Shown piece by piece: positions 22,606-63,935 of a stretch of DNA of 64,000 nucleotides (its first letter is position 1; every line of letters begins with the position of its first letter). Under the pieces are notes generated by a model that searched no databases, was not told the DNA's origin, and worked only from the letters and a program-made list of their open reading frames with translations. The translations under genes and the position numbers were made by a program. Origin of the DNA: Stegostoma tigrinum (taxonomy: Eukaryota); assembly GCF_030684315.1 (NCBI RefSeq), contig NC_081391.1, positions 21,102,629 to 21,166,628 of the forward strand. Direction: 5' to 3'.

Positions 22606-24687
22606 ATGGGGTCAATAATGTGTATGTTGTACATGGTGACATAATGCTAGTAACTTGGTTGTGCTCTGAGCAAATTAAAATAGTGTTCACCATGCAACTG
22701 AGTACTTTGCATAATTTCACAGCTGCTTCTGGCTCTTGGTATTGCTGTTTGACACCTGATCATGAAGTGTTTTTCTGTTCTGATTAACCTTTGATTCAAT
22801 GCCTGCCCCACTGGTTTGCTCCTTTTTCTCTTGTTTGTAGGAATTAGGTGGGCAATCCTTGTAGTGGAAATTCCACAAGTGTTCAGTTTGGGTTTTTTGG
22901 CTAGTAAGCAGTGTTGTATTGACTTTTTTATTCCAAACCAGCTTCTGGTCAATATCTTCAGTGAAACCAGCCCCCTGTCTCAATGTTAGACACTGCCCTT
23001 GCAAATGTTTAGGTCTCTTTTGTAAATAAGCAGGGGCAGGAAATAGCAGGTTTGGGGAGCATCTGTGGAGAGAAAACTGTTCAGTCCCAGGACCCAAGCT
23101 TTCCAGCAATTTTGTTGTCGCACTTCAAATCTAATGATTTGAGCATACATTTACTCTTTTTGGAACAGGAATATATATATAGCAGAACATCCAGCATTTC
23201 AGATGCACTGATCTTTAGCATTTAGATAAGCAATTGTGTCCAGATCTGGGAAATTGGTTTCTCTCTTTTGCTGCGGTGGTGGAAGGAGTGAGGGCAGTGG
23301 CTGTTTGTAGGAGAATGGCAGAGTTTGTTTTCTTGTGTATCAGTCTCTCTGCTTCTAGACAATGATCCTGATTAGGTAATGAAGCAGTCCCCACCTTCGA
23401 GCCCCTGTGGTAGAACTTCTATCACTTCTCTGCAGTCTAAGGACGCCAAATGCTCATGACACCAGGAGAAAATAAAGCTCCAACCCAAATGCCACTGGTA
23501 GAAAGCAGCAGTTCCTATTCTTAGCAAGGAAATAAGCTCTCCTGATGTAGATTGACTGACTGGAATGTACCTACACCTGCAGAGCACTCTGGCTGCCTAA
23601 TTACTGATGCTCAGGGGTGACAGATTCCTTTATAAAAAGGATGAGGATGTCTCTGAGCTGACACCATTTATTTATCCATTTCCGATTGCCCCCTGCCAAA
23701 GCCAGGTCAGAGTGTCACGCTTTGCTGTGGTTGCAGTGTCATATGCAGGCCAGACTAAGTAAGGATGCATTTTTGACACTGAATTTAATGCTACTCATCA
23801 GTTTCTTAATTCTAGAACTCCAGAGAGTTGTTGCACAGAATTAGAAGATCAGTCCACCACTCCAGAAATGTGATGGCCTCCCGCTCCCACCAGCCACGAG
23901 ATTCATTCTTTGCACCACTGACACACACAGAGTACACTGTGTACTGCCTCCCAAAAGCTGCAGAAATCCACCATCGCTCCTGAGACAATACTTTCCATAG
24001 CCCTAATTATGTGCCATGGGAGAAAAGCATCTGATACAGGGGAACACCACCCCCTCTAACTACTCCACCAAGCGACATGCCATCCTGAGTTGGAAACGTG
24101 ACCCGCCATGCTCCAGGGTCGGTGGATCAGAATCCTGGAATTCCCTCACTCAGAACATTATGGATCTGACGACAGCAAATAGGCACCAGCAATTCAAGAA
24201 GGAAAGCCACCACATTCTCTCATGGTGAGCCTGATCTCAGACCGGGTCCAATACCTCGGGATGGGCCTTCTTTTGTGAAATTGTCAAGTCCTAGTTCAAC
24301 CCCATCTGGAGTGCACTGTTCCAGTAGGTGCAATCCAAAGATGCTTATGCACAGAATTTCTGGAATGAACCTGGGCAGAAAGTTAATTGGCTACGATGAT
24401 AATAGTTTTCCCAAGTCTCTCGGTGTAGAAGTGGAAGGGATGTCTGTGCTTGAAATTTACAAGTGGATTCATGGATTTGATAGGGTAGATAGAGAGATCC
24501 TGCTTCTTTTCAATTCCATTCCAGGACCGAGAGTGGGGAATATGATTACATTCCTAGTAGTAGAAGTAAATCATCCATGATAAAGCAAAAAACAGCTGCT
24601 TTTTGGAAAGGATAATATGTGAATGAGCAGTTAGATATTTATTCGGTAAGATATTGATGTTGCCAATCACTTTCCCATTGCAACATA

Positions 24688-25849
24688 TGACCAAACAGGT
24701 AGATGAGAGAAAACCGGTTGATGTGGTGTATATGGATTTCGGCAAGGCTTTCGATTAGGCTCTTGTACAAAATACGGAGGAATGGGATTGTGGGAGATAT
24801 AGCAGTTTGGATCAGAAATTGGCTTGCTGAAAGAAGACAGCGTGGTGGTTGATGGGAAATGTTCATCCTGGAGACCGGTTACTCGCGGTGTACCGCAAGG
24901 GTCGGTGCTGGGTCCACTGCTGTTTGTCATTTTTATAAACGTAGAAGGATGGGTTAGTAAATTTGCAGACGACACGAAGGTCGGTGGAGATGTGGATAGT
25001 GACGAAGAATGTTGTAGGTTACAGAGAGACGTAGATAAGTTGCAGAGCTGGGCTGAGAGGTGGCAAACGGAGGTTAATGCGGACAAGTGTGAGGTGTTGT
25101 ACTTTGGTAGGAGGAACCGGAAGGCAAAGTACTGTAAGATTCTTGGTAGTGTAGATGAGCAGAGAGATCTCGGTGACCATGTACACAGATCCTTGAAAGT
25201 TGCCACCCAGGTTGACAGGGTTGTTAAGAAGGCATACAGTGTTTTAGCTTTTATGAATCCAGGGATCATGTTCCGGAACCAAGAGGTTATGCTGCAGCTG
25301 TACAAAACTCTGGTGCGGCCGCACTTGGAGCATTGCGTACAATTCTGGTCACCGCGTTATAAGAAGGATGTGGAAGTTTTGGAAAGGGTGCAGAGGAGGT
25401 TTACTAGGATGTTGCCTGGTATGGAGGGAAAGTCTTACGAGGAAAGGCTGAGGGACTTGAGGCTGTTCTCGTTAGAGATAAGAAGGTTGAGAGGTGACTT
25501 AATTGAGACATATAAGATAATCAAAGGGTTAGACAGGTTGGATAGGGAGAGCCTTTTCCCTAGGACGGAAACGGCGAGCACGAGGGGGCATAGCTTTAAA
25601 TTGAGGGGTGAAAGATATAGGACAGATGTCAGAGGTAGTTACTTTACTCAGAGAATAGTAAGGGTATGGAACGCTTTGCCTACAACGGTCGTAGATTCAC
25701 CAACTTTAAGTACATTTCAGTCGTCATTGGACAAGCATATGGACGTACGTGGAATAGTGTTGGTTAGATGAGCTTCAGATCGGTATGACAGGTCGGCACA
25801 ACGTCAGGGCCGAAGGGCCTGTACTGTGCTGTAATGTTCTATGTTCTAT
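24688..25849 (+). mobile_element. 5'-truncated CR1 (RT C-terminal part + 3' UTR)
   Basis: GVPQGSVLGP and FADD motifs, TGTTCTA tail, TSD AACATA (24682-24687 / 25850-25855); empty site at ~4652. Confidence 0.92.
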
Positions 25850-29465: not shown

Positions 29466-31856
29466 ATGGGGTCAATATCTATATCTGTTGTACATGGTGA
29501 CCTCATTCTACTAAATGACTAGTTGTTCTCTGAGCAAATTAAAAGAGTGTTCACCATGGAACTGAGTACAGTGTGTAATTTTCATAGCTTCTGGTTCTTG
29601 GAGGTTTTTTGTGTTTTAACATCTGGTAATCAAATCCATTTTCTGTTCTTTCTTGCAACCTTTGATTCAATGCCTGCCCCAGTAATTTGCTCGGTGTTTG
29701 CTTCTGCTGAGAGTCTGTAGGGATTGAGTGGGCAATCTTGTCCTTGGAAATGCCACAACTGGCAAATATCTGCATTGCAGACAATGCCAGAACAAAATCT
29801 GTCCTCAGCTTTCCCAGGACAATTTTTCAGGACCAGCTTCGGCTCAAAACCATGACTGAAATCTGTCCTGTGCCTAAACATTAGGCATTGCCAAGGCCTG
29901 TCCATTCATTCAATCTTCAGCATTTTTGGAAAAACCAAGCTGACACTGGAAACCAGGAACAAAAGCTGCTGGGAAATCTCAGGTTTGGTAGTGAGAAGTG
30001 TTGAACAGAACCGGGACACGAGACACGTGTTTATCTCTTGACTGATTTTGTTGCCAGGCCATGAGGTGTTTTGCACCTACTTGTTCTCTTGCTTAAATCT
30101 TACTGACTTTAATAGGTCACAAAATTCCTCATTACAAGGATATAAAGTTGACCAATCGTGCAAGGTACACCTGCTTTTCTGCAATTGCTTACCATTTACA
30201 TGTTTCCTGAGCTAGAGAATTGTTTCTCTAGTATGTCCTTTCCATTCAGTAGAATGAAAGCTCTGCTTTCTCCCTGACAATGCTAATGACTATGGCCTCT
30301 ATTAGGCAATGAAGCAGTGCCCACCTTCTAAAGCATCTGCTGTAACTCCTGTCCTTGCTCTGCAATGCAAAGGTGACAAATGCTGAGGACACCTGATGAC
30401 AATAAAGCAAAAACCAAAATACCACTTGCAGAAGTCAGTAGTTCCAATTTCCTTGACATTTAATTGTGAAGAAAATCAGCTTTCTGATGTAATCTGGCCT
30501 CCATGTGGCTCCACACACGCTGCATTGGGTCTAGCTCATTGCTGTCAATCACAATCAGTCACTGGTTTCTAATGGGTGACCACTGACAATTCCTTGACAG
30601 GATAAGGATGTCACTGACCAGGCAGCATTTATCCTCTGTCTGAACTGCCCATGGGCCCATTAGTCAACTACAGTGCTTTAGGCTTGGTGTCATATACTGG
30701 CCAGACCAGGTAAGGATGGCAGTTTGGCAGTTCCCTTCCCTGAATGACTTCAGTGAAAAGGATATTTTATTCAGACTAGGAATTGCATGCTCATTTTTAG
30801 GTTCATAATGCCCAAAGAGAGTTTTTCAGACAGAATCAGGACAATGGGCCTCAGTCCCACACTCCAGAAGCTTAACAGTTGCCAGCTCAGAGCAGCCACG
30901 AGATTCACTCCTTCCACCACTGACACACAGGGACTGCAATGTGTACTATCACCAAATGTTGTAGAAATCCACCAAAGCTCCCTAGACAACACCTTCCAAA
31001 GCCCCCATTACTTGCCATGGGACAAGGGCAGCAAATACATGGAACACAACCGCCTCTAAGTTCTACACCAAGCCATTCACCATCCTGAGTTGGAAACATG
31101 GTCCCATTCCCCTAGTGTGCTGGATCAGAATCCTGGAATTCCCTCCCTAACAGCATTGGGGATCTGCCTACACCAAATGGGCAACAGCAATTCAAGAACG
31201 CAAGCCACCACATTCTCTCATCTAATGTTAGGCCTGATCTCCGAGGGTTTCAACTACCTCTGGCTGATGGTTCTTTTGTGAAATTGTCAAGTTCTAGCTC
31301 AACCACAGCTGGAGTGCTCAGTTCTAGCAGCTTCGACCCAAAGATGGTTATGCACAGAATTTCTGGAATGAACTTGGACAGAGAGCTGGTTCATTGATGA
31401 TAACGGTTTGTCCCAGTCCCTCTGTGTAGAAGGTTAAGGGATGGCTGTGTTTGAAATTTCAAAGAGGATTAATGGATTTGACAGAGTGGACAGACAGAAT
31501 CTGTTTCTTGTCTATGGTCATTGAGGACTGTGTGCAAAATAGGATTATAATTTTCACATTACAACTAAATCATCCAGGATAGTGTCAAAAACAGCTTCTT
31601 TGTGGAGAAGATAATATGTGCACGTGCTGTTAGATATTTATTGGGTAAGGCTTGACTTTGACAATCACTTTCTAATTTCAACACTAAAAATATGTGAATA
31701 ACACATTTTCTTTGAGAAACATAGAAAGACAAAACAGGCTCAATGTTACAAATCTGATGTGAGTACAGGAGCAGAGAGACTTTGGGTTTCAAGTATGTGA
31801 TTATCTGAAAGTGACCAGCCAAGATGATGCTGTTATTGAGAAGGCTGTGGTGAACC

Positions 31857-33046
31857 AAGCATGTGGATGAGGGAAGGGCAGTTGACGTGGTGTACATGGA
31901 CTTCAGTAAAGCCTTTGATAAGGTTCCACATGGTAGGCTATTGGAGAAAATACAGAGGCAGAGGATTGAGGGAGATTTAGCAGTTTGGATTAGAAACTGG
32001 CTTTCTGTAAAAAGGCAACGAGTGGTGGTTGATGGAAAATATCCAGCCTGGAGTCAGGTCACTCGTAGTGTGCCTCAAGGATCTGCTTTAGGACCACTGC
32101 TGTTTGTCATTTTTATAAATGACTTGGACGCAGGCATAGGTGGATGGGTTAGTAAGTTTGCAGATGACACTAAAGTCGGTGGAGTGGTGGACGGGGTGGA
32201 AGAATGTTGCACGTTGCAGGGAGACTTGGATAAACTGCAGAATTGGGCTGAAAGGTGGCAAATGGAGTTCAATGCAGATAAATGTGAGTTGATTCAATTT
32301 TGGGGGAATAACAGGAAGGCAGAATACCGGGTCAATGGAAAGATTCTTGGCAGTGTGGATGTGCAGATGGATCTTGGTGTCCATGTACATAGATCCCTGA
32401 AAGTTGTCACCAGGTTGATAATGCTGATAAGAAGGCTTACCGTGTGTTAGGTTTTATTGGTAGAGGGATTGAGTTCCGGAGCCGTGATGTCATGCTGCAA
32501 CTGTACAAAACGCTAGTGCGGCCTCATTTGGAATATTGCGTGCAGTTCTGGTCACCCCATTACAGGAAGGATGTGGAAGCATTGGGAAAGGTGCAGAGGA
32601 GATTTACCAGGATGTTGCCTGGTCTGGAGCGCAGGCCCAATGAAGAAACGCTGAGGGACTTGGATCTGTTCTCATTGGAGAGAAGTAGGCTAAGAGGGGA
32701 TTTAATAGAGACATACAAGATGATCAGAGGATTAGATAGGGTGGACAGTGAGAGTCTTTTTCCGAGGATGATGACTTCAACTTGTACAAGGGGGGCATAG
32801 CTACAAATTGCGGGGTGATACATTTAAGACATTTGTCAGAGGCAGGTTCTTTGCTCAGAGAGTGGTAAGGGCGTGGAAAGCACTGCCTGCCAATGTAGTT
32901 AACTCAGCCACGTTAGGGGCATTTAAACAGTCCTTGAATAAGCATATGGATGGTGACGGGATTGTGTAGGAGGTGGGGCTTGGATTAGCTCACAGGTCGG
33001 CGCAACATCGAGGGCCGAAGGGCCCGTTCTGCGCTGTATTGTTCTA
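31857..33046 (+). mobile_element. Independent 5'-truncated CR1 inserted into an older LINE relic
   Basis: RT motifs, GTTCTA tail, TSD TGAACC (31851-31856 / 33047-33052); empty site at ~18245. Confidence 0.92.
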
Positions 33047-35161
33047 TGAACCTTGTGTTTTCAAATTGAGGCATCGAGCATAAAAGCAAGGAATTGATGA
33101 TACCCCTCTACAACTCATTGGTTAGACCACATTTGCAGTGATGTGCTCAGTTCTGGGCGTGGCTTTTAAGGAAGGGCATGCAAGCACTGGACAGAGTTCA
33201 AAGGTGATTTATAATAATGACACCTGGAATGGGGAATTTCAGACACACGGAAAGATTAAAGAAATAGCGCTTATTCTCCTTGGAGCAAGGAGCACTTGTT
33301 GAAGTGATCAAAATTATCACCAATTCTGTCAGGGTAAAGGGGGATATTCTGTTTTCACCAGTGGATACGTTAGTGACGAGGGGTCACAATTTGTCAGTGA
33401 GGGAGCTCACAGTGAGAGGAGGAGAAACCTCTTCACTCAGAAAGTTGGTAGGGTTTGGTATGCGTAGCTGACAGGAGTGATGGACGCAGATTCCGTAGGT
33501 GGCTTTAGAAAAGCAGCTGTATACATATATGGAAGTGGCAAATTTAGAGGGATACAGACATAGGGCTGGAGAGTGGGGCTGGGTGTGGAATGCTTTCAGA
33601 AGCTGAATCAGGCACGATGGACCAAATGGCCTCCTATCATTAAAAATCCTCTGCATGTTCCCCCAGGAAATTCTCAGAGTTTGGAGAGGGCCTTTGTACT
33701 CCTCTCAGTGGGCACCTGTACAAGGCACCTTTAATGTGGGAAAGCTGTTACACATCAGCAGAGACATGGTCCTTTACACAAGGTAGACCCAGTTCCACTG
33801 GCAAAGAAATGTTGACTGGGGATCCCCCAACTGCTGACCTTCACCCACCGTCACAGCCAACGATAGCACACGCCTATCTTCCACCTGGATGGCCGTTGGG
33901 AACTTGTTTTGCATTGCACTTTACCAGGACCTTCCCCTCGATCGTACTGTCCTGGGTGGCCCTGCCAGGAGGTGAAATCCTCTTCAGGTATCACTCTCAG
34001 AACCAACAGAACACTCGAGGCTCTCCATCACTGCGAGGTGACAATCCACAGGCAGGAGCTGGAGGCAGGGAGATGCTGCTCAGGTACAGACCCATCACAG
34101 AATCGGAGAATTGTTGTGGCACAGCAGGCGGCCATTCGGTCCTTTGTGCCTGTACCTGTTCTGGTTGTTTTCTAATTCTGCCTGTAGAGATGTTACAAAA
34201 TCTCTGGATCTGGTATGGACTTGGACCAAGGCTTCCTGGTCCACAGCTAGGGACATTACCCCTGCATCACAATACCCTGGCTGCACTGGTTGTACAAACT
34301 TAGAATCATCGAAAAAAAATTGTTGGATTCGGCCATTCAGCCCCCTCCAGACTGCTCTGCCATTCCATGTGATTGTGGCTGATTCCATAACTCAGTCCCA
34401 TCTTCCCACTCTCTCTCCATACTCTTTGATCCCTTCAGCCCTCAAAGCTACACCCAACTGCTCCTGGAAAACATTCAAAGTTTTGGCCTCAAATGTTTTC
34501 TGTGGCACAGAATTCCACAGGACCCCCACTCTCTCGGTGAAGAGATTTCTCCTCATCTCAGTCCTAAATGTGTCCTTAGGCTGTGACCCCTGATCCTAAA
34601 CTTTTCCATCATCAGGAACATCCTTCCTGTCTTTTCCACAGCTGACACTATGACAATTTTCGATGACCCCGAGCCAATTTCCCACCTTTCTTTCCCAAAT
34701 CCCAGCACAACAGGCTGAGAAACTGACACTCCCCTTCCTCAATGAGTCCCTTGTGCAGTTGATCACAACCACCATAATTTAAAAACAAAACGAGCAATCT
34801 TTTCTCAAACCATATCTACTTCTTTCAGAAAAGAACCAAATGACCTATGACCTGAGTGAGTGGTGCAGAAGGTTTGAGATGCCGAATGGCCTCCTGCTGT
34901 TCCAATCACAGAATAACCATCCAGACCTGGCTCTCATCTCCACCTCTGATCAGCTCTGCTTAACACACCCTCCCCCTCTCTCTCATTGGTGCCTGTATGC
35001 ATGGGTGGCTCCTGATTGGCCAGCAGCAACTGTCAGTCATCATCAGTTCGGTCTCCCTCTGGGTGAGTGCCGGTTGTCTCAGGAGTAGAAACACAACAGC
35101 TTTGGGGATTGAGGCCTTTGTTCCAGAGTTGTCCTTGTGATTGTGAGCAGGAATAGTGAAG

Positions 35162-44369: not shown

Positions 44370-46455
44370 GTGAGGTCAATAATGTGTCTGTTGTACATGG
44401 TGACATAATGCTAGTAACTTGGTTGTGCTCTGAGCAAATTAAAATAGTGTTCACCATGGAACTGAGTACTTTGTATAATTTCACAGCTGCTTCTGGCTCT
44501 TGGTATTGCTGTTTGACACCTGATCATTAATTCCTTTTCTGTTCTGATTAACCTTTGATTCAATGCCTGCCCCAGTCGTCTGCTCCTTTTCTCTTCACTT
44601 GTTTGTAGGAATTAGGTGGGCAATCCTTGCAGTGGAAATTCCACAAGTGTTCAATTTGGGTTTTTGGCTAGTAAGCAGTGTTGTGTTGACTTTTTTATTC
44701 CAAACCAGCTTCTAGTCAATATCTTCAGTGAAACCAGCCCCCTGTCTCAATGTTAGACACTGCCCTTGGCAATGTTCAAGTCTCTTTTGTAAATAAGCAG
44801 GGGCAGGAAATAGCAGGTTTGGGGAGCATCTGTGGAGAGAACTGTTCTCAGTCCCAGGACCCAAGATACAGTCACATCTCGTGACAGATGTTGCCAGACC
44901 TGTGAGGCTTTCCAGCAATTTTTTTGTCGCACTTCAAATCTAGCAATTTGAGCATACTTTCACTCTTTTGAACAGGAATATATAGTGGAACATCCAGCAT
45001 CTAAGATGCACTGATCTTTAGCACTTTAGATAAGCAATTGTTTCCAGAGCTGGGAAATAGTTTACTCTCTTTTGCTGCAGTGGGGGAAGGAGTAAGGGCA
45101 CTGCCTGATTGTAGGAGAATGGCAAAATTTGTTTTCTCGTGTATCAGTCTTTCTGCTTCTAGACAATGATCCTCATTATGTAATGCAGCAGTGCCCACCT
45201 TGGAGCCCCTGTGGTAGAACTTCTATCATTGCTCTGCAATGTAGAGATGCCAAAGGCTCAGGACACCTAGTAAAAATAAAGCTAGAATGCAAATGCCACT
45301 AGCAGAAAGCAGCAGTTTGTGTGCTTAGCAAGGAAATAAGCTCTCCTGATGTACGCTGACCGGCATGTACCTCCACCTGCAATGTGCTATGGCTGCCTAA
45401 TTACTGGTGCTCAGGGGTGACAGTTTCCTTTATTTAAAGGATGAGGATGTCTCTGAGCTGACACCATTTATTTATCCATTGCTCATTGTCCCCAAGGCCA
45501 GGTCAGAGTCACACACGTGGCTGTGGTTGCAGCGTCATACGCAGGCCAGGTAAGGATGGGTTTTTGACACTGAATATAATGCTCCTCATCAGCTTCTTAA
45601 TTCTAGAACTCCAGAGAGTTGTCGCACAGAATTAGGAGATCATTCCACCACTCCAGAAACTTGATGGCCTCCAGCAGCCACTAGATGCATTCTTTGCACC
45701 ACTGACACACACGGAGTACACTGTGTACCGCCTCCCAAAAGCTGGAGAAATCCACCAAAGCTCCTGAGAATACTTTCCAAAGCCCTAATTACTTGCCATG
45801 GGAGAAAGGCATCTGATACAGGGGAAAACCACCCCCTCTAAGTTCTCCATCAAGCTACCTGCCATCCTGAGTTGGAAACACAACACCCCATTCTCCAGTG
45901 TCGGTGGATCAGAATCCTGGAATTCCCTCACTAGGAACATTGTGGATCTGACTACAGCAATTAAAGAAAGAAAGCCACCCCATTCTCTCATGGTGGGTGT
46001 GATCTCCGAGCGGGTCAAATACCTCTGGCTGGGCCGCCTTTTGTGAAATTGTCAAGTTCTAGCTCAACTCCATCTCGAGTGCATGGTTCTAGTAGGTTCA
46101 ATCCAAAGATGCTTATGCACAGAATTTCTGGAATGAACCTGGGCAGAAAGTTAATTGGCTACGATGATAATCGTTTTCCCAAGTCCCTCGATGTAGAAGT
46201 GGACGGGATGTCTGTGCTTGGAATTTACAAGTGGATTCATGGATTTGACAGGGTAGATAGAGAGATCCTGCTTCTTTTCAATTCACATCCAGGACTGAGA
46301 GGGGGGAATATGATTACATTCCTAGCAGTAGAAGTAAATCATCCATGATAAAGCAAAAAACAGCTGCTTTTTGGAAAGGATAATATGTGAATGAGCAGTT
46401 AGATATTTATTCGGTAAGATGTTGATGTTGCCAATCACTTTCCCATTGGAACATA

Positions 46456-47631
46456 TGACCAAACAGGTAGATGAGAGTAAACCGGTTGATGTGGTGTATA
46501 TGCATTTCGGCAAGGCGTTCGATTAGGCTCCCCACAGTAGGCTATTGTACAAAATGCGGAGGAATGGGATTGTGGGAGATATAGCAGTTTGGATCAGAAA
46601 TTGGCTTGCTGAAAGAAGACAGGGTGGTGGTTGATGGGAAATGTTCATCCTGGAGACCGGTTACTCGCGGTGTACCGCAAGGGTCCGTGTTGGGTCCACT
46701 GCTGTTTGTCATTTTTATAAACGTAGAAGGATGGGTTAGTAAATTTGCAGATGACACTAAGGTCGGTGGAGATGTGGGTAGTGACGAAGAATGTTGTAGG
46801 TTACAGAGAGACGTGGATAAGTTGCAGAGCTGGGCTGAGAGGTGGCAAATGGAGGTTAATGCCGACAAGTGTGAGGTGATGCACTTTGGTAGGAGGAACC
46901 GGAAGGCAAAGTACTGTAAGATTCTTGGTAGTGTAGATGAGCAGCGAGATCTCGGTGACCATGTACACAGATCCTTGAAAGTTGCCACCCAGGTTGACAG
47001 GGTTGTTAAGAAGGCATACAGTGTTTTAGCTTTTATGAATACAGGGATCGTGTTCCGGAACCAAGAGGTTATGCTGCAGCTGTACAAAACTCTTGTGCGG
47101 CCGCACTTGTAGCATTGCGTACAGTTCTGGTCACCGCATTATAAGAAGGATGTGGAAGTTTTGGAAAGGGTGCAGAGGAGGTTTACTGGGATGTTGCCTG
47201 GTATGGAGGGAAAGTCTTACGAGCAAAGGCTGAGGGACTTGAGGCTGTTTTCGTTAGAGAAAAGAAGGTTGAGAGGTGACTTAATTGAGACATCTAAGAT
47301 AATCAAAGGGTTAGACAGGTTGGATAGGGAGAGCCTTTTTCCCAAGACGGAGACAGCGAGCACGAGGGGCATAGCTTTAAATTGAGGGGTGAAAGATATA
47401 CGACAGATGTCAGAGGTAGTTTCTTTACTCAGAGAATAGCAAGGGTGTGGAACGTTTTGCCTGCAACGGTAGGAGATTCACCAACGTTAAGTACGTTTAA
47501 GTTGTCATTGGACAAGCATATGGACGTACATGGAATAGTGTAGGTTAGATGAGCTTCAGATCGGTATGACAGGTCGGCACAACGTCAAGGGCCGAAGGGC
47601 CTGTACTGTGCTGTCATGTTCTCTGTTCTAT
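46456..47631 (+). mobile_element. Segmental-duplication copy of the 24688 CR1 fragment
   Basis: Same AACATA TSD, same internal deletions and flanks; additional stop and frameshift. Confidence 0.92.
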
Positions 47632-51050: not shown

Positions 51051-51459
51051 CTTTTTGAGTGCGAGCAGCAGCGGAGGCAAGACGGACCCGGAAGACTGCA
51101 GCTAAGGTAAAGCAGTTTATTTTTAAAACTACTTACCGGTAGCGGGCAGCGGTGTTTTTTTTTGCTCTTTCAGAGAAGGAGCGGGAGCATCAGAGGAAGT
51201 GACGAGGACCAGAGGGGCAGCCGGGAAGGAAAGCAGTGAGTATAAATACTCACCCTTCGACGCCAACGGCCTTTTTGAGTGCGAGCAGCAGCGGAGGCAA
51301 GACGGACCCGGAAGACTGCAGCTAAGGTAAAGCAGTTTATTTTTAAAATTACTTACCGGTAGCGGGCAGCGGTGTTTTTTTTTGCTCTTTCAGAGAAGGA
51401 GCGGGAGCATCAGAGGAAGTGACGAGGACCAGAGGGGCAGCCGGGAAGGAAAGCAGTGA
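51051..51459 (+). repeat. 220-bp tandem monomer (about 1.9 copies) forming the CR1 5' end
   Basis: CTTTTTGAGTGCGAGCAGCAGCGG... begins at 51051 and again at 51271; the two copies are almost identical. Confidence 0.95.
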
Positions 51460-51660
51460 CCATATATATCAGCAAGGCAGCTAAATCCGAGACTCTACAA
51501 CTGTAGTGTCACCCACCCGCCCTCCTCCTCTAACCTAGTTAATAAGGTAAGGTTCATTCTAAACTTTCTCTATTGAACATAAGTTTGTTATTAATTTGTT
51601 ATTATTACTTGAAGTGAGCTTTCTGCTTTAGTACTGAGTGGGTGTTCAGATAAGTGGGGT

Positions 51661-52596
51661 ATGGATGCTAGGGCAGTTGCTTGCTCCTCCTGCAAAATGT
51701 GGCAGTTGGGAGATGTGGCACACGTCTCCGCTGGCTACATCTGCGGGAAGTGCACCCAGCTACAGCTCCTTGAAAACCGTGTTAGGGAAATGGAGCTGGA
51801 GCTGGATGAACTACGGATCATTCGGGAGGCAGAGGGGGTAATTGAGAGGAGTTATCGGGAGTTGGTCACTCCTAAGGCTCAGGACGAGGATAGATGGGTT
51901 ACAGTTAGGGGGAGGAAAGGGGACAGACAGACAGTGCAGAGATCCCCTGTGGGCATTCCCCTCAGCAATAAGTATACCGTTTTGGATACTGCTGGGGGGG
52001 TTGACCTACCAGAGGAAAGCCATAGTAGTCAGTTCTCTGGCACTGAGCCTGACACTGTGGCAAAGAAGGGAAGGGGGCAGAATAGAAAAGTACTCGTGGT
52101 AGGGGACTCGATAGTTAGGGGAATCGACAGGAGATTTTGTGGGCAAGATCGGGATTCCCGGAAGGTATGTTGCCTCCCTGGTGCCAGGGTCCGGGACGTC
52201 TCCGATCGGGTGTATAAAGTTCTGAAAGGGGAGGGTGAACAGCCAGAAATCGTGTTACATATTGGCACAAATGATATAGCCAGAAATAGGTTTGAGGATA
52301 TAAAAAGTGATTTCAGGGAGTTAGGATGGAAGCTGCAGAGCAGGACGAACAGAGTAGTGTTCTCTGGTTTACTACCGGTGCCACGAGATAGCGAGGTGAG
52401 GAACAGGGAGCGGGCGCAGCTGAACACGTGGCTACGCAGCTGGTGTAGGAGGGAGGGTTTCAGATATGTTGATAATTGGGATGCCTTCTGGGGAAGGTGG
52501 GACCTGTACAAGAAGGACGGGTTGCATCTGAACTGGAAGGGGACCAATGTCCTGGGTGGAAGGTTTGCTCGAGTAGTTCGAGAGGGTTTAAACTAG
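51661..52596 (+). CDS. CR1 ORF1: CxxC-CxxC zinc finger, coiled coil, SGNH esterase domain (311 aa, intact)
   Basis: CSSC...CGKC; LELDELRII heptads; VVGDS, HIGTND and DGLH esterase motifs, as known for CR1 ORF1p. Confidence 0.9.
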   Translation: MDARAVACSSCKMWQLGDVAHVSAGYICGKCTQLQLLENRVREMELELDELRIIREAEGVIERSYRELVTPKAQDEDRWVTVRGRKGDRQTVQRSPVGIPLSNKYTVLDTAGGVDLPEESHSSQFSGTEPDTVAKKGRGQNRKVLVVGDSIVRGIDRRFCGQDRDSRKVCCLPGARVRDVSDRVYKVLKGEGEQPEIVLHIGTNDIARNRFEDIKSDFRELGWKLQSRTNRVVFSGLLPVPRDSEVRNRERAQLNTWLRSWCRREGFRYVDNWDAFWGRWDLYKKDGLHLNWKGTNVLGGRFARVVREGLN

Positions 52597-55486
52597 TATG
52601 GCAGGGGGGTGGGAACCTGAGCTGTATACCAGAGGTGAGCGTTGATGCAGGTGAGGCAGTAGCAAGAGGTAGACCAGCTAGTGGGAAGGATTTTCCTGGG
52701 AAGGAACCAAGGGATCGGTTAAAGTGTGTTTGCTTTAATGCAAGGAGTATCAGGAATAAAAGTGATGAACTTAGAGCATGGATCAGTACCTGGTGCTATG
52801 ATGTTGTGGCCATAACAGAGACATGGGTTTCTCATGGGCTGGAATGGTTGCTGGATATTCCAGGGTTTAGAACATTTAAAAAGAATAGGGAGGGGGGAAA
52901 AAGAGGAGGGGGTGTAGCACTACTAATCAGAGAGGGTATCACAGCTACAGAAGCTTCCATTGTCGAGGAAGATCTGCCTACTGAGTCAGTATGGGTGGAA
53001 ATTAGGAACAGCAAGGGAGTAGTCACCTCGTTAGGGGTTTACTACAGGCCCCCCAATAGCAGCAGGGAGATTGTAGAAAGCATAGGTCGACAGATTTTGG
53101 AAAAGTGTGCACGCAGTAGGGTTGTTGTAATGGGTGACTTTAACTTTCCTAATATTGATTGGAACCTCCTTCGAGCAGAAGGATTTGAATGGAGCTGTTT
53201 TTGTAAGGTGTGTTCAGGAGGGTTTCCTAACGCAGTACGTTGACAGGCCGACGAGGGGAGAGGCCATTCTAGACTTGGTGCTCGGAAACGAGCCGGGGCA
53301 GGTATCAGATCTTGTGGTGGGAGAGCATTTTGGTGATAGTGACCATAACACTCTCTCATTCTACATAGCTATGGAGAAGGAGAGGATTAGGCAGAATGGG
53401 AGGATATTTAATTGGGGAAGAGGAAACTATGATGCGATTAGACACGAGTTAGGAAGCATGGACTGGGAGCAGTTGTTCCATGGTAAGGGAACTATAGACA
53501 TGTGGAGATGGTTTAAGGAACAGTTGTTGGGAGTGATGAGTAAATATGTCCCTCTGAGACAGGCAAGACGGGGTAAGATAAAGGAACCTTGGATGACGAG
53601 AGCGGTGGAGCTTCTAGTGAAAAGGAAGAAGGTAGCTTACATAAGGTGGAGGAAGCTAGGGTCAAGTTCAGCTAGAGAGGATTACATGCAGGCAAGGAAG
53701 GAGCTCAAAAATGGTCTGAGGAGAGCCAGGAGGGGGCACGAGAAAGGCTTGGCAGAAGGAATCCGGGAAAACACAAAGGCATTTTACACTTACGTGAGGA
53801 ATAAGAGAATGGTCAAAGAAAGAGTAGGGCCGATCAGGGATAGCATAGGGAACTTGTGTGTGGAGCCTGAGGAGGTAGGGGAAGCCCTAAATGAGTTTTT
53901 TGCTTCTGTCTTTACGAAAGAAACGACCTGTGTAGTGAATGAAACCTTTTGAAGAGCAGGTGTGCATGCTGGAATGGATAGAGATAGAGGAAGCTGATGT
54001 ACTGAAAATTTTGTCAAACATTAAGATTGACAAGTCGCCAGGCCCGGATCAGATTTGTCCTCGGCTGCTTTGGGAAGCGAGAAATGCAATTGCTTCGCCA
54101 CTTGCGAAGATCTTTGCATCCTCGCTCTCCACTGGAGTCGTACCTGAGGACTGGAGAGAGGCAAATGTAATTCCTCTCTTCAAGAAAGGAAATAGGGAAA
54201 TCCCCGGCAATTATAGACCGGTAAGTCTCACGTCTGTCGTCTGCAAGGTGTTAGAAAGGATTCTGAGGGATAAGATTTATGACCATCTGGAAGAGCATGG
54301 CTTGATCAAATACAGTCAACACGGCTTTGTGAGGGGTAGGTCATGCCTTACAAACCTTATCGAGTTTTTTGAGGATGTGACTAGTAAGGTTGATGAGGGT
54401 CAAGCTGTGGATGTGGTGTATATGGACTTCAGTAAGGCATTTGATAAGGTTCCCCATGGAAGGCTCATTCAGAAGGTCAGGAGGAATGGGATACAGGGGA
54501 ACTTAGCTGCTTGGATACAGAATTGGCTGGCCAACAGAAGACAGCGAGTGGTAGTAGAAGGAAAATATTCTGCCTGGAAGTCAGTGGTGAGTGGGGTTCC
54601 ACAGGGCTCTGTCCTTGGGCCTCTACTGTTTGTAATTTTTATTAATGACTTGGACGAGGGAATTGAAGGATGGGTCAGCAAGTTTGCAGACGACACAAAG
54701 GTCGGAGGTGTCGTTGACAGTGTAGAGGGCTGTTGTAGGCTGCAGCGGGACATTGACAGGATGCAGAGATGGGCTGAGAGGTGGCAGATGGAGTTCAACC
54801 TGGATAAATGCGAGGTGATGCATTTTGGAAGGTCGAATTTGAAAACTGAGTACAGGATTAAGGATAGGATTCTTGGCAGCGTGGAGGAACAGAGGGATCT
54901 TGGTGTGCAGATACATAGATCCCTTAAAATGGCCACCCAAGTGGACAGGGTTGTTAAGAAAGCATATGGTGTTTTGGCTTTCATTAACAGGGGGATTGAG
55001 TTTAAGAGTCGTGAGATCTTGTTGCAGCTCTATAAAACTTTGGTTAGACCGCACTTGGAATACTGCGTCCAGTTCTGGGCGCCCTATTATAGGAAAGATG
55101 TGGATGCTTTGGAGAGGGTTCAGAGGAGGTTTACCAGGATGCTGCCTGGACTGGAGGGCTTATCTTATGAAGAGAGGTTGACTGAGCTCGGTCTCTTTTC
55201 ATTGGAGAAAAGGAGGAGGAGAGGGGACCTAATTGAGGTATACAAGATAATGAGAGGCATAGATAGAGTCGATAGCCACAGACTATTTCCCAGGGCAGAA
55301 ATGGCTAGCACGAGGGGTCATAGTTTTAAGCTGGTTGGTGGAAAGTATAGAGGGGATGTCAGAGGCAGGTTCTTTACGCAGAGAGTTGTGAGAGCATGGA
55401 ATGCGTTGCCAGCAGCAGTTGTGGAAGCAAGGTCATTGGGGTCATTTAAGAGACTGCTGGACATGCATATGGTCACAGAAATTTGA
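52584..55486 (+). pseudogene. CR1 ORF2 (AP endonuclease + reverse transcriptase) broken by two +1 insertions
   Basis: FNARS, AITETW, GGGVAL, YYRPP, MGDFN and SDH APE motifs; NYRPVSL, YMDFSKAFD, GVPQGSVLGP and FADD RT motifs. Frame changes near 53183 and 53950; no internal stops otherwise. Confidence 0.9.
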
Positions 55487-58424
55487 GGGTGCATCCATGA
55501 GGATCAATGGTCGGCACAACATTGTGGGCTGAAGGGCCTGTTCTGTGCTGTACTGTTCTATGTTCTATGTTCTAACACCACGTTCTACACCAAACCACCG
55601 ATCAGCTGGTGTTGGAAACATCGCTCCCAGGTTCCCTCCCTAACAGCAGTATGGGTTTGATTACACCAAATGGGCAACAGTAATGCAAGAAGGCAAGGCA
55701 CCACATTCTCTAAACTAATGTTGGCCCTGATCTCTGAGGGGTTCAAATACCTCTGGATGAAGAGGTTTTGGTGAAATGGTCAAGTTCCTGTTCAACCACA
55801 GCTGGAGTGCACAGTTCTGGCAGGTTCGACCCAAAGATGGTTATGCACAGAATTTCTGGAAGTAACCTGGACAGAGTGATGGTTAATTCATGATAACGGC
55901 TTGTCTAGTCCCTCTGTGTAGGAAGTTAAGGGATGGCTGTAATTGATAATTTTCAGAGGATTAATGGATTTGACAGGGTAGAGAGGAAAGAACCCATTTC
56001 TTCTCAATGATCATCTCGGACTGTGCGCAGAATGGGATGACAATGTTCACATTAGAATTACATCATCCAGGATAATATCAAAAACAATTTCTTTGTGGAA
56101 AGGACAATATCTGCACACACAGATATTTACTGCACAAGGTTTGATGTTGCCAATCACTTTCCAATTTCAACAAAAAAAAGTGAGTAATGCATTTTTGTCG
56201 AAGAAACACAAAGTCAAAACAGGCTCGATGTTACAAATCTGATGTGAGTACAGGAGCTCAGCGACTTTCAGTTTCAAGTATGTGATTATCTGAAAGTGGT
56301 CAGGCAGGATGAAGCTGTTATTAATGGAGATTGAGCCACTTTTGTGAACCTTGTGTTTTCAAATTGAGGCATCGAGTATAAAAGCAACGAATTGATGTTA
56401 CACCTCTACAAATCATTGGTTAGACCACATTTCCATTATGTACTCAGTTCTGGGCGTGACATTCAAGGAAGGATGTGAAAAACCTCAAAAGTGTTCAAAG
56501 GTGATTTATTACGATGACCCCAGGAATGGGGAATTTTAGATACACAGAAAGATTAAGGAAAATGGGGGAAATCTCCTTGTAGGTGACCTTATTGACGTGA
56601 TCAAAACTATGATCAATTTTGTCAGAGTAAAGCAGGATATTCTGATTTCAGCAGTTGACTTGTCAGTGACGAGGGGTCACAGTTTGTCAGTAGGGGAGAT
56701 CAGAGTGAAATGGTTAGAAAACTCTTTGCTCAGAAAGTTGTTCGGATTTGGAATGTGCTGCCTGGGAGAGTGACGGAGGTCGATTCCATGGTTGGTTTCA
56801 GAACAAGAGTTGGATATGTCGTTGGAAGTGACGAATTTAGAGAGTGACAGAGATAGGGCTGGAAAGTGAGACTAATCAGGTAGCTCTTTCAGAAGCTATT
56901 ACAGGAACGGTGGGCTGAACGGCCTCCTGTTGTGAAAAACGCTCTGAATTTCCACTCAGAAAATTCTGAGAGTTTGGGGACGGGGTTTGAATTCCACCTG
57001 TAGAAGGCACCTTTAATGTGGGAAAGCTGTTACACGCCAGCAGAGACATGGTCCTTTACACAAGGTAGACCCAGTTCCACTGGCAAAGAAATGTTGACTG
57101 GGGATCCCCCCACTGCTGACCAACACCCACTGTCACAGCCAACGATCGCACACACCTATCTTCCACCTGGATGGCCGCTGGGGACTGGTTTTGCATTGCA
57201 CTTTATCAGGACCCTCCCCTCGATCGTACCATCCTGGGTGGCCCTGCCAGGAGGTGAAATCCTCTTCACTTATCACTCTGAGAACCAACAGAACACTCGA
57301 GGCTTTCCATCACTGCGAGGTGACAATCCACGGGCAGGAGCTGGAGGCAGGGAGATTCTGCTCAGGTACAGACCCACCACAGAATCGGAGAATTGTTATG
57401 GCACAGCAGGAGGCCATTCGGTCCTTTGTGCCTGTACCTGTTCTGGTTGTTTTCTAAATCTGCCTGTAGAGATGATTTAAGATCTCTGGATCTGGTAGGA
57501 ACTTGTACCAAGGCCTCCTGGTCCACAGCTAGGGACATGACCCCTTAACCACAAGACCCTGGCTGCGCTAGTTGCACAAACGTGGAATCATAGAAAATAA
57601 ATGTTGAGTCGGCCATTCATCCCTTCCAGCCTGCTCTGCCATTCCATGTGATTGTGGCTGATTCCATAACTCAGCACCATATTCTCACCCTCTCTGCATT
57701 CCCTTTTGATCCAGCCCTCAAAGCTCTCCCCAATTCCTGTTTTGGCTTCAATCCTTTTCTGTGGCAGAGAATTCCACAGGATCCACCACCCCGCCCCCCG
57801 AGGTGAAGAGATTTCTCCTCACCTCAGTTCTAAATGTATCCTTAGACTGCAAACCCTGGTCCTGAACTCCCCCATAATCAGGAACATCCTTCCTGTCTTT
57901 TCCACAGCTGACACTGTTACAATTTTCTATGATCCAGAGACAATTTCCCAACTTTCTTTCCCAAATCCCAGCATAACAAGCTGAGAAACTGATGCCCCTC
58001 TTCCTCATTGAATCCCTCGTGCAGTTGCTCACAACCACCTTAATTAAAAAAAATGTGAAAACTTTTCTCAAACCAAATTGACTTATTTTAAAAAAGAACC
58101 AAATGACCCATGACCTGATTGAGTGGTGCAGAAGGTTTGAGATGCCGAATGGCCTCCTGCTGTTCCAATCACAGAATAACCATCCAGACCTGGCTCTCAT
58201 CTCCTCCTCTGATCAGCTCTGCTTAACACACCCTCCCCCTCTCTCTCATTGGTGCCTGTATGCAGGGGTGGTTCCTGATTGGCCACCAGCAACTGTCAGT
58301 CATCATCAGTTCTGCCTCTCTGTGTGACTGCAGGATGGTCCCAGGACTATAAATACAAGAGCCTGTGGGAGAGAGAGACTTAGTTCTAGAGTTTTCTTGG
58401 TGCTTGTGAGCAGGAATAGTGAAG

Positions 58425-60700: not shown

Positions 60701-62773
60701 ATGGGGTCAATAATGTGTATGTTGTACATGGTGACATAATGCTAGTAACTTGGTTGTGCTCTGTGCAAATTAAAATAGTGTTCACCATGCAACTGAGTAC
60801 TTTGCATAATTTCACAGCTGCTTCTGGCTCTTGGTATTGCTGTTTGACACCTGATCATGAAGTGTTTTTCTGTTCTGATTAACCTTTGATTCAATGCCTG
60901 CCCCACTGGCTTGCTCCTTTTCTCTTGTTTGTAGGAATTAGGTGGGCAATCCTTGTAGTGGAAATTCCACAAGTGTTCAGTTTGGGTTTTTTTGGCTAGT
61001 AAGCAGTGTTGTATTGACTTCTTTATTCCAAACCAGCTTCTGGTCAATATCTTCAGTGAAACCAGCCCCCTGTCTCAATGTTAGACACTGCCCTTGCAAA
61101 TGTTTAGGTCTCTTTTGTAAATCAGCAGGGGCAGGAAATAGCAAGTTTGGGGAGCATCTGTGGAGAGAAAACTGTTCAGTCCCAGGACCCAAGCTTTCCA
61201 GCAATTTTGTTGTCGCACTTCAAATCTAATGATTTGAGCATACATTCACTCTTTTTGGAACAGGAATATATATAGCAGAACATCCAGCATTTCAGATGCA
61301 CTGATCTTTAGCATTTAGATAAGCAATTGTGTCCAGATGTGGGAAATTGGTTTCTCTCTTTTGCTGCGGTGGTGGAAGGAGTGAGGGCAGTGGCTGTTTG
61401 TAGGAGAATGGCAAAGTTTATTTTCTTGTGTATCAGTCTCTCTGCTTCTAGACAATGATCCTGATTACGTAATGAAGCAGTCCCCACCTTCGAGCCCCTG
61501 TGCTAGAACTTCATCACTTCTCTGCAGTCTAAGGACGCCAAATGCTCATGACACCAGGAGAAAATAAAGCTCGAACCCAAATGCCACTGGCAGAAAGCAG
61601 CAGTTCCTATTCTTAGCAAGGAAATAAGCTCTCCTGATGTAGATTGACTGACTGGAATGTACCTACACCTGCAGAGCACTCTGGCTGCCGAATTACTGAT
61701 GCTCAGGGGTGACAGATTCCTTTATAAAAAGGATGAGGATGTCTCTGAGCTGACACCATTTATCCATTTCCGATTGCCCCCCGCCAAAGCCAGGTCAGAG
61801 TGTCACGCTTTGCTGTGGTTGCAGTGTCATATGCAGGCCAGACTAAGTAAGGATGCATTTTTGACACTGAATTTAATGCTACTCATCAGTTTCTTAATTC
61901 TAGAACTCGAGAGTTGTTGCACAGAATTAGAAGATCAGTCCACCACTCCAGAAATGTGATGGCCTCCCGCTCCCACCAGCCACGAGATTCATTCTTTGCA
62001 CCACTGACACACACAGAGTACACTGTGTACTGCCTCCCAAAAGCTGCAGAAATCCACCATCGCTCCTGAGACAATACTTTCCATAGCCCTAATTACGTGC
62101 CATGGGAGAAAAGCATCTGATACAGGGGAACACCACCCCCTCTAACTACTCCACCAAGCGACATGCCATCCTGAGTTGGAAACGTGACCCGCCATGCTCC
62201 AGGGTCGGTGGATCAGAATCCTGGAATTCCCTCACTCAGAACATTATGGATCTGACGACAGCAAATAGGCAACAGCAATTCAAGAAGGAAAGCCACCACA
62301 TTCTCTCATGGTGAGCCTGATCTCAGACCGGGTCCAATACCTCGGGATGGGCCTTCTTTTGTGAAATTGTCAAGTCCTAGTTCAACCCCATCTGGAGTGC
62401 ACTGTTCCAGTAGGTTCAATCCAAAGATGCTTATGCACAGAATTTCTGGAATGAACCTGGGCAGAAAGTTAATTGGCTACGATGATAATAGTTTTCCCAA
62501 GTCTCTCGGTGTAGAAGTGGAAGGGATGTCTGTGCTTGAAATTTACAAGTGGATTCATGGATTTGATAGGGTAGATAGAGAGATCCTGCTTCTTTTCAAT
62601 TCCATTCCAGGACCGAGAGTGGGGAATATGATTACATTCCTAGTAGTAGAAGTAAATCATCCATGATAAAGCAAAAAACAGCTGCTTTTTGGAAAGGATA
62701 ATATGTGAATGAGCAGTTAGATATTTATTCGGTAGGATATTGATGTTGCCAATCACTTTCCCATTGCAACATA

Positions 62774-63935
62774 TGACCAAACAGGTAGATGAGAGAAAAC
62801 CGGTTGATGTGGTGTATATGGATTTCGGCAAGGCTTTCGATTAGGCTATTGTACAAAATACGGAGGAATGGGATTGTGGGAGATATAGCAGTTTGGATCA
62901 GAAATTGGCTTGCTGAAAGAAGACAGCGTGGTGGTTGATGGGAAATGTTCATCCTAGAGACCGGTTACTCGCGGTGTACCGCAAGGGTCGGTGCTGGGTC
63001 CACTGCTGTTTGTCATTTTTATAAACGTAGAAGGATGGGTTAGTAAATTTGCAGACGACACGAAGGTCGGTGGAGATGTGGATAGTGACGAAGAATGTTG
63101 TAGGTTACAGAGAGACGTAGATAAGTTGCAGAGCTGGGCTGAGAGGTGGCAAACGGAGGTTAATGCGGACAAGTGTGAGGTGTTGTACTTTGGTAGGAGG
63201 AACCGGAAGGCAAAGTACTGTAAGATTCTTGGTAGTGTAGATGAGCAGAGAGATCTCGGTGACCATGTACACAGATCCTTGAAAGTTGCCACCCAGGTTG
63301 ACAGGGTTGTTAAGAAGGCATACAGTGTTTTAGCTTTTATGAATCCAGGGATCATGTTCCGGAACCAAGAGGTTATGCTGCAGCTGTACAAAACTCTGGT
63401 GCGGCCGCACTTGGAGCATTGCGTACAATTCTGGTCACCGCATTATAAGAAGGATGTGGAAGTTTTGGAAAGGGTGCAGAGGAGGTTTACTAGGATGTTG
63501 CCTGGTATGGAGGGAAAGTCTTACGAGGAAAGGCTGAGGGACTTGAGGCTGTTCTCGTTAGAGAGAAGAAGGTTGAGAGGTGACTTAATTGAGACATATA
63601 AGATAATCAAAGGGTTAGACAGGTTGGATAGGGAGAGCCTTTTCCCTAGGACGGAAACGGCGAGCACGAGGGGGCATAGCTTTAAATTGAGGGGTGAAAG
63701 ATATAGGACAGATGTCAGAGGTAGTTGCTTTACTCAGAGAATAGGAAGGGTATGGAACGCTTTGCCTACAACGGTCGTAGATTCACCAACTTTAAGTACA
63801 TTTAAGTCGTCATTGGACAAGCATATGGACGTACGTGGAATAGTGTTGGTTAGATGAGCTTCAGATCGGTATGACAGGTCGGCACAACGTCAGGGCCGAA
63901 GGGCCTGTACTGTGCTGTAATGTTCTATGTTCTAT
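62774..63935 (+). mobile_element. Segmental-duplication copy of the 24688 CR1 fragment
   Basis: Same TSD and flanks; nearly identical to 24688-25849. Confidence 0.92.

Follow-up and report, generated by a model that had tools for sequence, protein, structure and literature searches.

How do ribosomes reach the second open reading frame (ORF) of a retrotransposon when it overlaps the end of the first and has no start codon until well inside its endonuclease domain? This question is raised by a full-length non-LTR retrotransposon (one that lacks long terminal repeats, LTRs) at positions 51051-55573 of a 64,000-nt stretch of Stegostoma tigrinum DNA (contig NC_081391.1; the whole stretch is called the window). 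The element is a long interspersed element (LINE) that we assign, provisionally, to the CR1 clade from its domain content and its homology to the ORF1 proteins of birds and turtles. CR1 elements are the dominant LINEs in birds, reptiles and sharks. How LINE ORF2 is translated is described as an open question in passages of two papers (PMC3894237; PMC3708506). For this element, comparison of copies and lineages indicates that ORF2 is likely made by -1 ribosomal frameshifting at a conserved U_UUA_AAC heptamer at the ORF1/ORF2 junction. The resulting ORF1-ORF2 fusion, put forward in a preliminary description of the locus, is well supported by comparative sequence evidence. The features on which the argument turns are as follows.

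51661-52596, plus strand: ORF1, 311 aa, ending L-N-stop; N-terminal Cys motif and SGNH/GDSL esterase; best solved structure 4C1B (E 3.7e-43)
52584-52590, plus strand: G_GGT_TTA, a second in-phase heptamer, in only 3/13 lineages
52587-52593, plus strand: T_TTA_AAC slippery heptamer, predicted -1 shift site from phase and conservation
52594-52603, plus strand: 10-nt spacer with the ORF1 stop, fixed in length and variable in sequence
52604-52613, plus strand: GGGGG-NN-GGG motif, candidate frameshift stimulator, in 12/12 lineages with downstream DNA
52587-55486, plus strand: ORF2, in the -1 frame, with a linker followed by APE endonuclease and reverse transcriptase; 966 codons open from the 52584-equivalent position in 9/9 siblings
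51516-51535, plus strand: C-rich element of the 5' untranslated region (UTR), present in each of the five shark families; its sequence complements the G motif of the junction (putative pairing)

Pfam matches were obtained to PF13472 (SGNH/GDSL esterase, E 1.7e-13) in ORF1, to PF03372 (Exo_endo_phos endonuclease, E 4.6e-14) in the -1 ORF and to PF00078 (RVT_1, E 2.1e-35) in the downstream ORF; an SGNH esterase in ORF1 with APE and reverse transcriptase domains in ORF2 is the arrangement of CR1-type APE LINEs. The family is young, full-length siblings in the 3.2 Gb genome searched for copies being 99.2-99.8% identical, and the closest protein to the window ORF1, at 99% identity, carries the source label zebra shark. 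In the window copy, ORF2 is interrupted near 53181 and near 53947, in each case by a private insertion of one base, which the preliminary description missed; the argument therefore rests on the siblings.

Reading frames at the junction

ORF1 ends T TTA AAC TAG, with the stop codon at 52594-52596, and both GGGTTTA (52584) and TTTAAAC (52587) read as X_XXY_YYZ in phase with ORF1. The ATG at 52598 belongs to the +1 frame, that at 53130 is the first in the -1 frame, and the G run at 52604-52609 comprises six Gs; the window sequence thus bears out the preliminary description on each of these points. A lone heptamer is not above chance, there being 272 XXXYYYZ words on the plus strand of the window. 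The heptamer together with the G motif occurs once in the window, compared with 0.0001 occurrences expected from base composition for a motif that was defined after seeing the data.

Comparison was extended to four more families from the same genome, retrieved via divergent ORF1 queries and 40-71% identical in ORF1 (the five shark families are lettered A to E), and to a metagenome scan that gave 44 loci, 10 of which reach the junction as bird/reptile-type host DNA. Thirteen lineages were scored, namely the five shark families (commonest base per column) and eight single bird/reptile-type loci. Left out of the count were L070, which is frameshifted at the site; L082, which is +1 in frame and has lost the second G block but keeps the heptamer and GGGGG at +11; and, among the shark copies, six that carry insertions or deletions near the anchor (L054, L061, L116, L118, L122 and L127).

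In all nine full-length siblings of the window copy the -1 frame runs for 966 codons from the junction, and its first Met is codon 183, just before the GDFN motif and after about 137 endonuclease codons. Among shorter loci the frame is open to their end in 29 of 30, the remaining one stopping after 110 codons. In the endonuclease part upstream of this Met, the ratio of nonsynonymous to synonymous substitution (dN/dS) is 0.14 with one family C copy as reference and 0.16 with a second; this stretch ahead of the first ATG is under purifying selection, which argues that it is translated. Upstream of the heptamer, none of the copies scored has an ATG in the ORF2 frame. An overlapping -1 ORF that encodes a conserved protein and has no start of its own is present in families A, C and E, and other lineages have optional ATGs. 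The modal linkers between junction and endonuclease differ in length (125, 188, 119, 143, 176, 245, 134 and 92 nt) and all of them lead to the -1 frame. In families B, C and D, as in most of the loci not from sharks, the -1 frame becomes closed at a point 1-5 codons upstream of the heptamer, so that the predicted slip site is where ORF2 opens.

Conservation of the heptamer and of ORF1 C-termini

Young copies were chosen on their flanks, 30 on ORF1 and 30 on ORF2, and the junction itself played no part in the choice. The same junction, with its six Gs, is present in all 30 ORF1-picked copies and in 14 of the 30 ORF2-picked copies, which amounts to 44/44 of those that bear a junction; the other 16 lack it, mostly through 5' truncation. 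One fewer G in the run 52604-52609, the variant that the preliminary description had named as fatal to its proposal, was looked for and is absent from all 44. These copies also bear on an explanation at the level of RNA, in which ORF2 would come into frame with ORF1 or with ATG 52598 either through splicing or because a slipping polymerase adds a base to the T/A run or the G run. One G fewer would indeed bring that ATG into frame, the length of the G run varies in old family E copies, the 5' UTR carries splice-like signals, and two single copies (L142 and L118) have deletions across the junction, one of them an open frame of 1173 aa. These two deletions, however, have different right ends and are not bounded by GT...AG, nor is an ATG conserved at the 52598-equivalent position. 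New copies are made from LINE RNA, and altered RNAs would be copied into the genome, yet the junction is unaltered in 44/44 young copies; correction of the RNA is therefore very improbable. No joint across the junction was listed in public shark-like contigs, which cannot show the absence of one.

Across the 13 lineages the heptamer bases T, T, T and A are kept in 13/13 and A, A and C in 12, 11 and 12 of 13, respectively. Over the last 26 codons of ORF1, three third positions are kept in at least 12/13 lineages and all three fall within the heptamer; the codons of the D-G-x-H-L motif are conserved, yet their third positions vary. Synonymous sites between lineages are saturated (proportion of synonymous differences 0.67-0.86), and TTA is rare among the leucine codons elsewhere in these elements (3/25, 5/80 and 6/89). 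Conservation of the heptamer and the G motif is far above this synonymous background. When every old copy that was fetched is counted, the heptamer is intact in 12/12, 10/11, 11/12 and 13/16, and GGGGG stands exactly at +11 after it in 8, 8, 7 and 7. The preliminary description had stressed two overlapping heptamers. Both are present and in phase in the window; as a conserved feature the tandem did not hold, its G_GGU_UUA member being confined to the three lineages listed above. G_GGU_UUA is the slippery site of the L-A virus. That spelling was not found in the portion of the text of PMC5009743 available, which counts U_UUA_AAC and G_GGA_AAC among the heptamers most prone to shifting.

Protein data extend the comparison. 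An L-N end is found in 85 of 120 ORF1 homologues, and in 74/76 of those with a complete end; their sources, by name, are sharks, rays, coelacanth, teleost, frogs, turtles, lizards and birds. In four of the 85, the residue before L-N has no codon ending in T. A wider search of distant ORF1s gave 53 proteins that end L-N and 20 that end G-N. The residue before the terminal pair lacks a T-ending codon in 0/53 of the former and in 16/20 of the latter, and lacks a G-ending codon in 0/20 of the latter (15 Q, 2 A, S, V and K). This provides a lead, in that the two sets of preceding residues would fit the requirements of U_UUA_AAC and G_GGA_AAC, respectively; the proteins are related, and a Fisher p-value therefore overstates the association. 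In the esterase tree the G-N proteins fall in a single branch, which has a subgroup ending F-F-x, and no L-N, G-N or F-F-x ends were seen in the ZfL2-1-like esterase branch. P0173, P0177, P0190, P0203, P0208, P0252 and their relatives are distant esterase ORF1s ending Q-G-N, S-K-N or F-F-x, ends that would fit other slippery heptamers.

Constraint of this kind might also arise outside translation, if L-N were required by the protein and the junction DNA acted in cis in transcription, in packaging of the RNA or in reverse transcription. Public shark-like contigs contain a conserved nucleotide island at about 52582-52617, with many loose ends on both sides, which shows constraint and not its kind. 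Against such a role, ORF2 would still have to be started in some way, an L-N end is missing from the related esterase of solved structure (4C1B) and from its clade, and a role in decoding fits the heptamer's phase, the constancy of the -1 frame and the change to G-N ends; we consider it extremely improbable that the conservation is of this non-translational sort.

The G motif, the proposed mechanism and reinitiation

The GGGGG-NN-GGG motif at fixed spacing was absent from the preliminary description. It begins exactly 10 nt after the heptamer, with G at positions +11 to +15 and +18 to +20 in 12/12 lineages, and the spacer sequence and everything beyond the motif vary. In the -1 frame the motif reads G-x-G, and both glycines are always GGG, compared with a background of ~28-44%; the constraint therefore acts on nucleotides. 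In family B, 8/12 copies end L-N-F-stop, with the stop one codon later, and the motif is still 10 nt from the heptamer. The motif is therefore phased to the heptamer and not to the stop.

The preliminary description had instead drawn a stem, ATGGCAGG...CCTGAGCTGT, downstream of the junction. This stem can be drawn and is part of the minimum free energy (MFE) structure, but it does no better than shuffled sequences (z -0.02), is absent from the centroid and is not shared by other lineages. Rfam gave no match of note. A G-quadruplex was considered and rejected, a two-tier quadruplex appearing in the MFE structure of only 5/13 sequences. The C-rich 5' UTR element can pair with the G motif at 8-10 of 10 positions in the five shark families; in a permutation test on the two variable positions, 36 of 120 permutations do as well, and a check of 6 bird/reptile-type loci did not reveal the element. 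It may act as a promoter box or as an RNA partner of the junction motif.

In the proposed mechanism, ribosomes would pause with tRNA-Leu on UUA and tRNA-Asn on AAC, both tRNAs would re-pair one base back (UUA/AAC to UUU/AAA) and reading would continue into ORF2. A minority of ribosomes would slip, giving a fusion of esterase, endonuclease and reverse transcriptase with about 1,274 residues (311 + 963), and most would stop at the adjacent stop codon and release ORF1p, resulting in a high ORF1p:ORF2p ratio. The G motif would be the stimulator, a role we infer with less confidence, acting as sequence and not as a local hairpin or pseudoknot; it would most likely be a protein-binding site at the mRNA entry channel, and by analogy may work like the C-rich motif of PRRSV, the virus that causes porcine reproductive and respiratory syndrome.

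A number of observations weigh against frameshifting. The 13 lineages share ancestry, and the eight non-shark lineages are single copies. The evidence from G-N ends consists of protein sequences only. Conserved stimulatory structure was not found, with z-scores from -1.9 to +1.5 across lineages and no explicit pseudoknot modeling, and the 10-nt spacing exceeds the 5-9 nt usual for RNA structures according to a passage of PMC7618472. Old copies are often out of frame, only 4/11 of those scored in family E being in the -1 frame, and L071 and L082 are in the +1 frame; we read the out-of-frame old copies, most of them in family E, as decay. The search for a natural lineage with an in-frame ORF1-ORF2 fusion yielded one gene model and no such lineage. 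Finally, some lineages have a potential start codon for ORF2: family D has TAATG, with the ATG in the ORF2 frame at codon 4, in 9/11 copies; 4/7 bird/reptile-type loci have an in-frame ATG one codon later, at codon 5; and family B has one at codon 17 in 6/12 copies.

These start codons are what termination-reinitiation would use. L1 ORF2 is translated by codon-tolerant reinitiation. In the CR1 element, ribosomes that had stopped at the end of ORF1 would begin again in the -1 frame, at the codon that overlaps the stop or the one after it, in the SART1 manner (UAAUG) or with codon tolerance; a separate ORF2p would be made, and the G motif would hold the post-termination ribosome. SART1 itself uses UAAUG with a downstream RNA element, as stated in passages of PMC3708506 and PMC3894237. 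Only family D, however, has an ATG overlapping the ORF1 stop; the same place is ATT in family C, CTG or GTG in family B, AGT in family E and GTA in the youngest, intact family, that of the window. Reinitiation gives no reason for the fixed synonymous positions of TTTAAAC upstream of the stop, does not predict the G-N ends of distant lineages, and sits poorly with a G motif that in family B follows the heptamer and not the stop. As the general explanation it is unlikely, and where an ATG exists it may run parallel to frameshifting.

Frameshifting at the CR1 junction can be set beside several known systems. Of a canonical programmed -1 frameshift signal, the in-phase heptamer is present, and the stem-loop or pseudoknot 5-9 nt downstream is not found as a conserved feature. 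With the coronavirus 1a/1b signal the junction shares the identical U_UUA_AAC (passages of PMC5009743) in the correct phase and a downstream ORF in the -1 frame, and the predicted product follows the gag-pol logic of viruses, in which the replicative enzyme is a minor fusion to a structural protein. It differs from viral signals in lacking the conserved downstream structure, in belonging to a non-LTR element and in that no protease domain that could process the fusion was seen in the element with Pfam. The closest likeness is to the PRRSV nsp2 -2/-1 signal, a slippery site followed about 10 nt downstream by a short homopolymer-rich motif without obvious structure. Passages of PMC4937337 describe the PRRSV C-rich motif as efficient at spacings of 9-11 nt and as needing bound proteins, nsp1beta and PCBP; the CR1 junction likewise has a conserved unstructured motif at a fixed distance within that range (12/12). 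Unlike in PRRSV, the CR1 motif is G-rich, the heptamer differs and only a -1 shift leads into ORF2.

Among LINEs, a passage of a review (PMC5911963) states that a -1 frameshift is required for ORF2 of Dictyostelium TRE5-A and TRE3-A, which are also APE-type and differ in clade and in ORF1. SART1 and L1 resemble the CR1 element in their bicistronic RNA and low-level ORF2, and family D shares the stop-overlap geometry of SART1; they differ in that the CR1 lineages conserve the upstream heptamer and do not conserve the start codon. ZfL2-1, whose ORF1p is PDB 4C1B, has an esterase ORF1 and an ORF2 with APE and reverse transcriptase (passages of PMC3905857), but ZfL2-1-like ORF1s have no L-N end; the word 'frameshift' does not occur in the main text of that paper. 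Our literature search gave no paper proposing frameshifting for CR1, and an earlier proposal in the primary CR1, SART1 or L1 papers or in Repbase is possible. While -1 frameshifting itself is well known, what is new here is the GGGGG-NN-GGG motif exactly 10 nt after the heptamer.

More tentatively, a large branch of CR1 may have relied on -1 frameshifting since before the split of sharks and birds to produce its reverse transcriptase within an ORF1-ORF2 fusion, with a stimulator of a new kind, a G-rich motif bound by a host or element protein or paired with the element's own 5' UTR, and with other heptamers such as G_GGA_AAC in distant lineages; this wider picture is possible, and we hold it with some doubt. 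With a cassette of 27 nt (52587-52613), a single series of reporters would be enough to test the question. If frameshifting occurs as proposed, ORF2p would carry the multimerizing esterase ORF1p at its N-terminus in a gag-pol-like design, which bears on ribonucleoprotein assembly and on the annotation of ORF2 starts. A structure-free G-rich stimulator would be a rare case in a cellular genome beside the few protein-stimulated viral signals.

The rest of the element and its surroundings

The remaining parts of the element are its two untranslated ends.

51051-51660, plus strand: 5' UTR, holding a 220-nt tandem monomer in 1.9 copies (51051-51459)
55487-55573, plus strand: 3' UTR, ending in short TTCTATG-type repeats

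The short-repeat 3' end is accompanied by frequent 5' truncation, as in the 16/30 ORF2-picked copies without a junction. The 5' UTR shows splice-like signals at 51105-51175, 51325-51395 and 51545-51632, with sites in each monomer and immediately ahead of the ORF1 ATG: donors of canonical appearance, a branch-like motif and acceptors with a pyrimidine tract. These sites are mostly kept in the siblings that reach them, and donor-like sites are also present in the UTRs of other families. Copy L142 (G000:C26:5591800-5597800), a member of family C in which an internal deletion joins ORF1 to the endonuclease in frame to give the 1173-aa open frame, appears to be a single-copy fusion.

A pattern search for other variants of the cassette returned four single copies and no new family, viral contigs gave no match, and prokaryote genomes gave one 506-nt fragment without the junction. 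CR1 ORF1 sequences also occur in records labeled as bacteria (Pseudomonas and Providencia; protein P0008 and locus L111), most likely as contamination with vertebrate DNA. The window itself holds four related 5'-truncated CR1 copies, about 70% identical in the reverse transcriptase region, at 24636-25849, 31854-33048, 46404-47631 and 62722-63935, and older CR1 fragments lie elsewhere within it.

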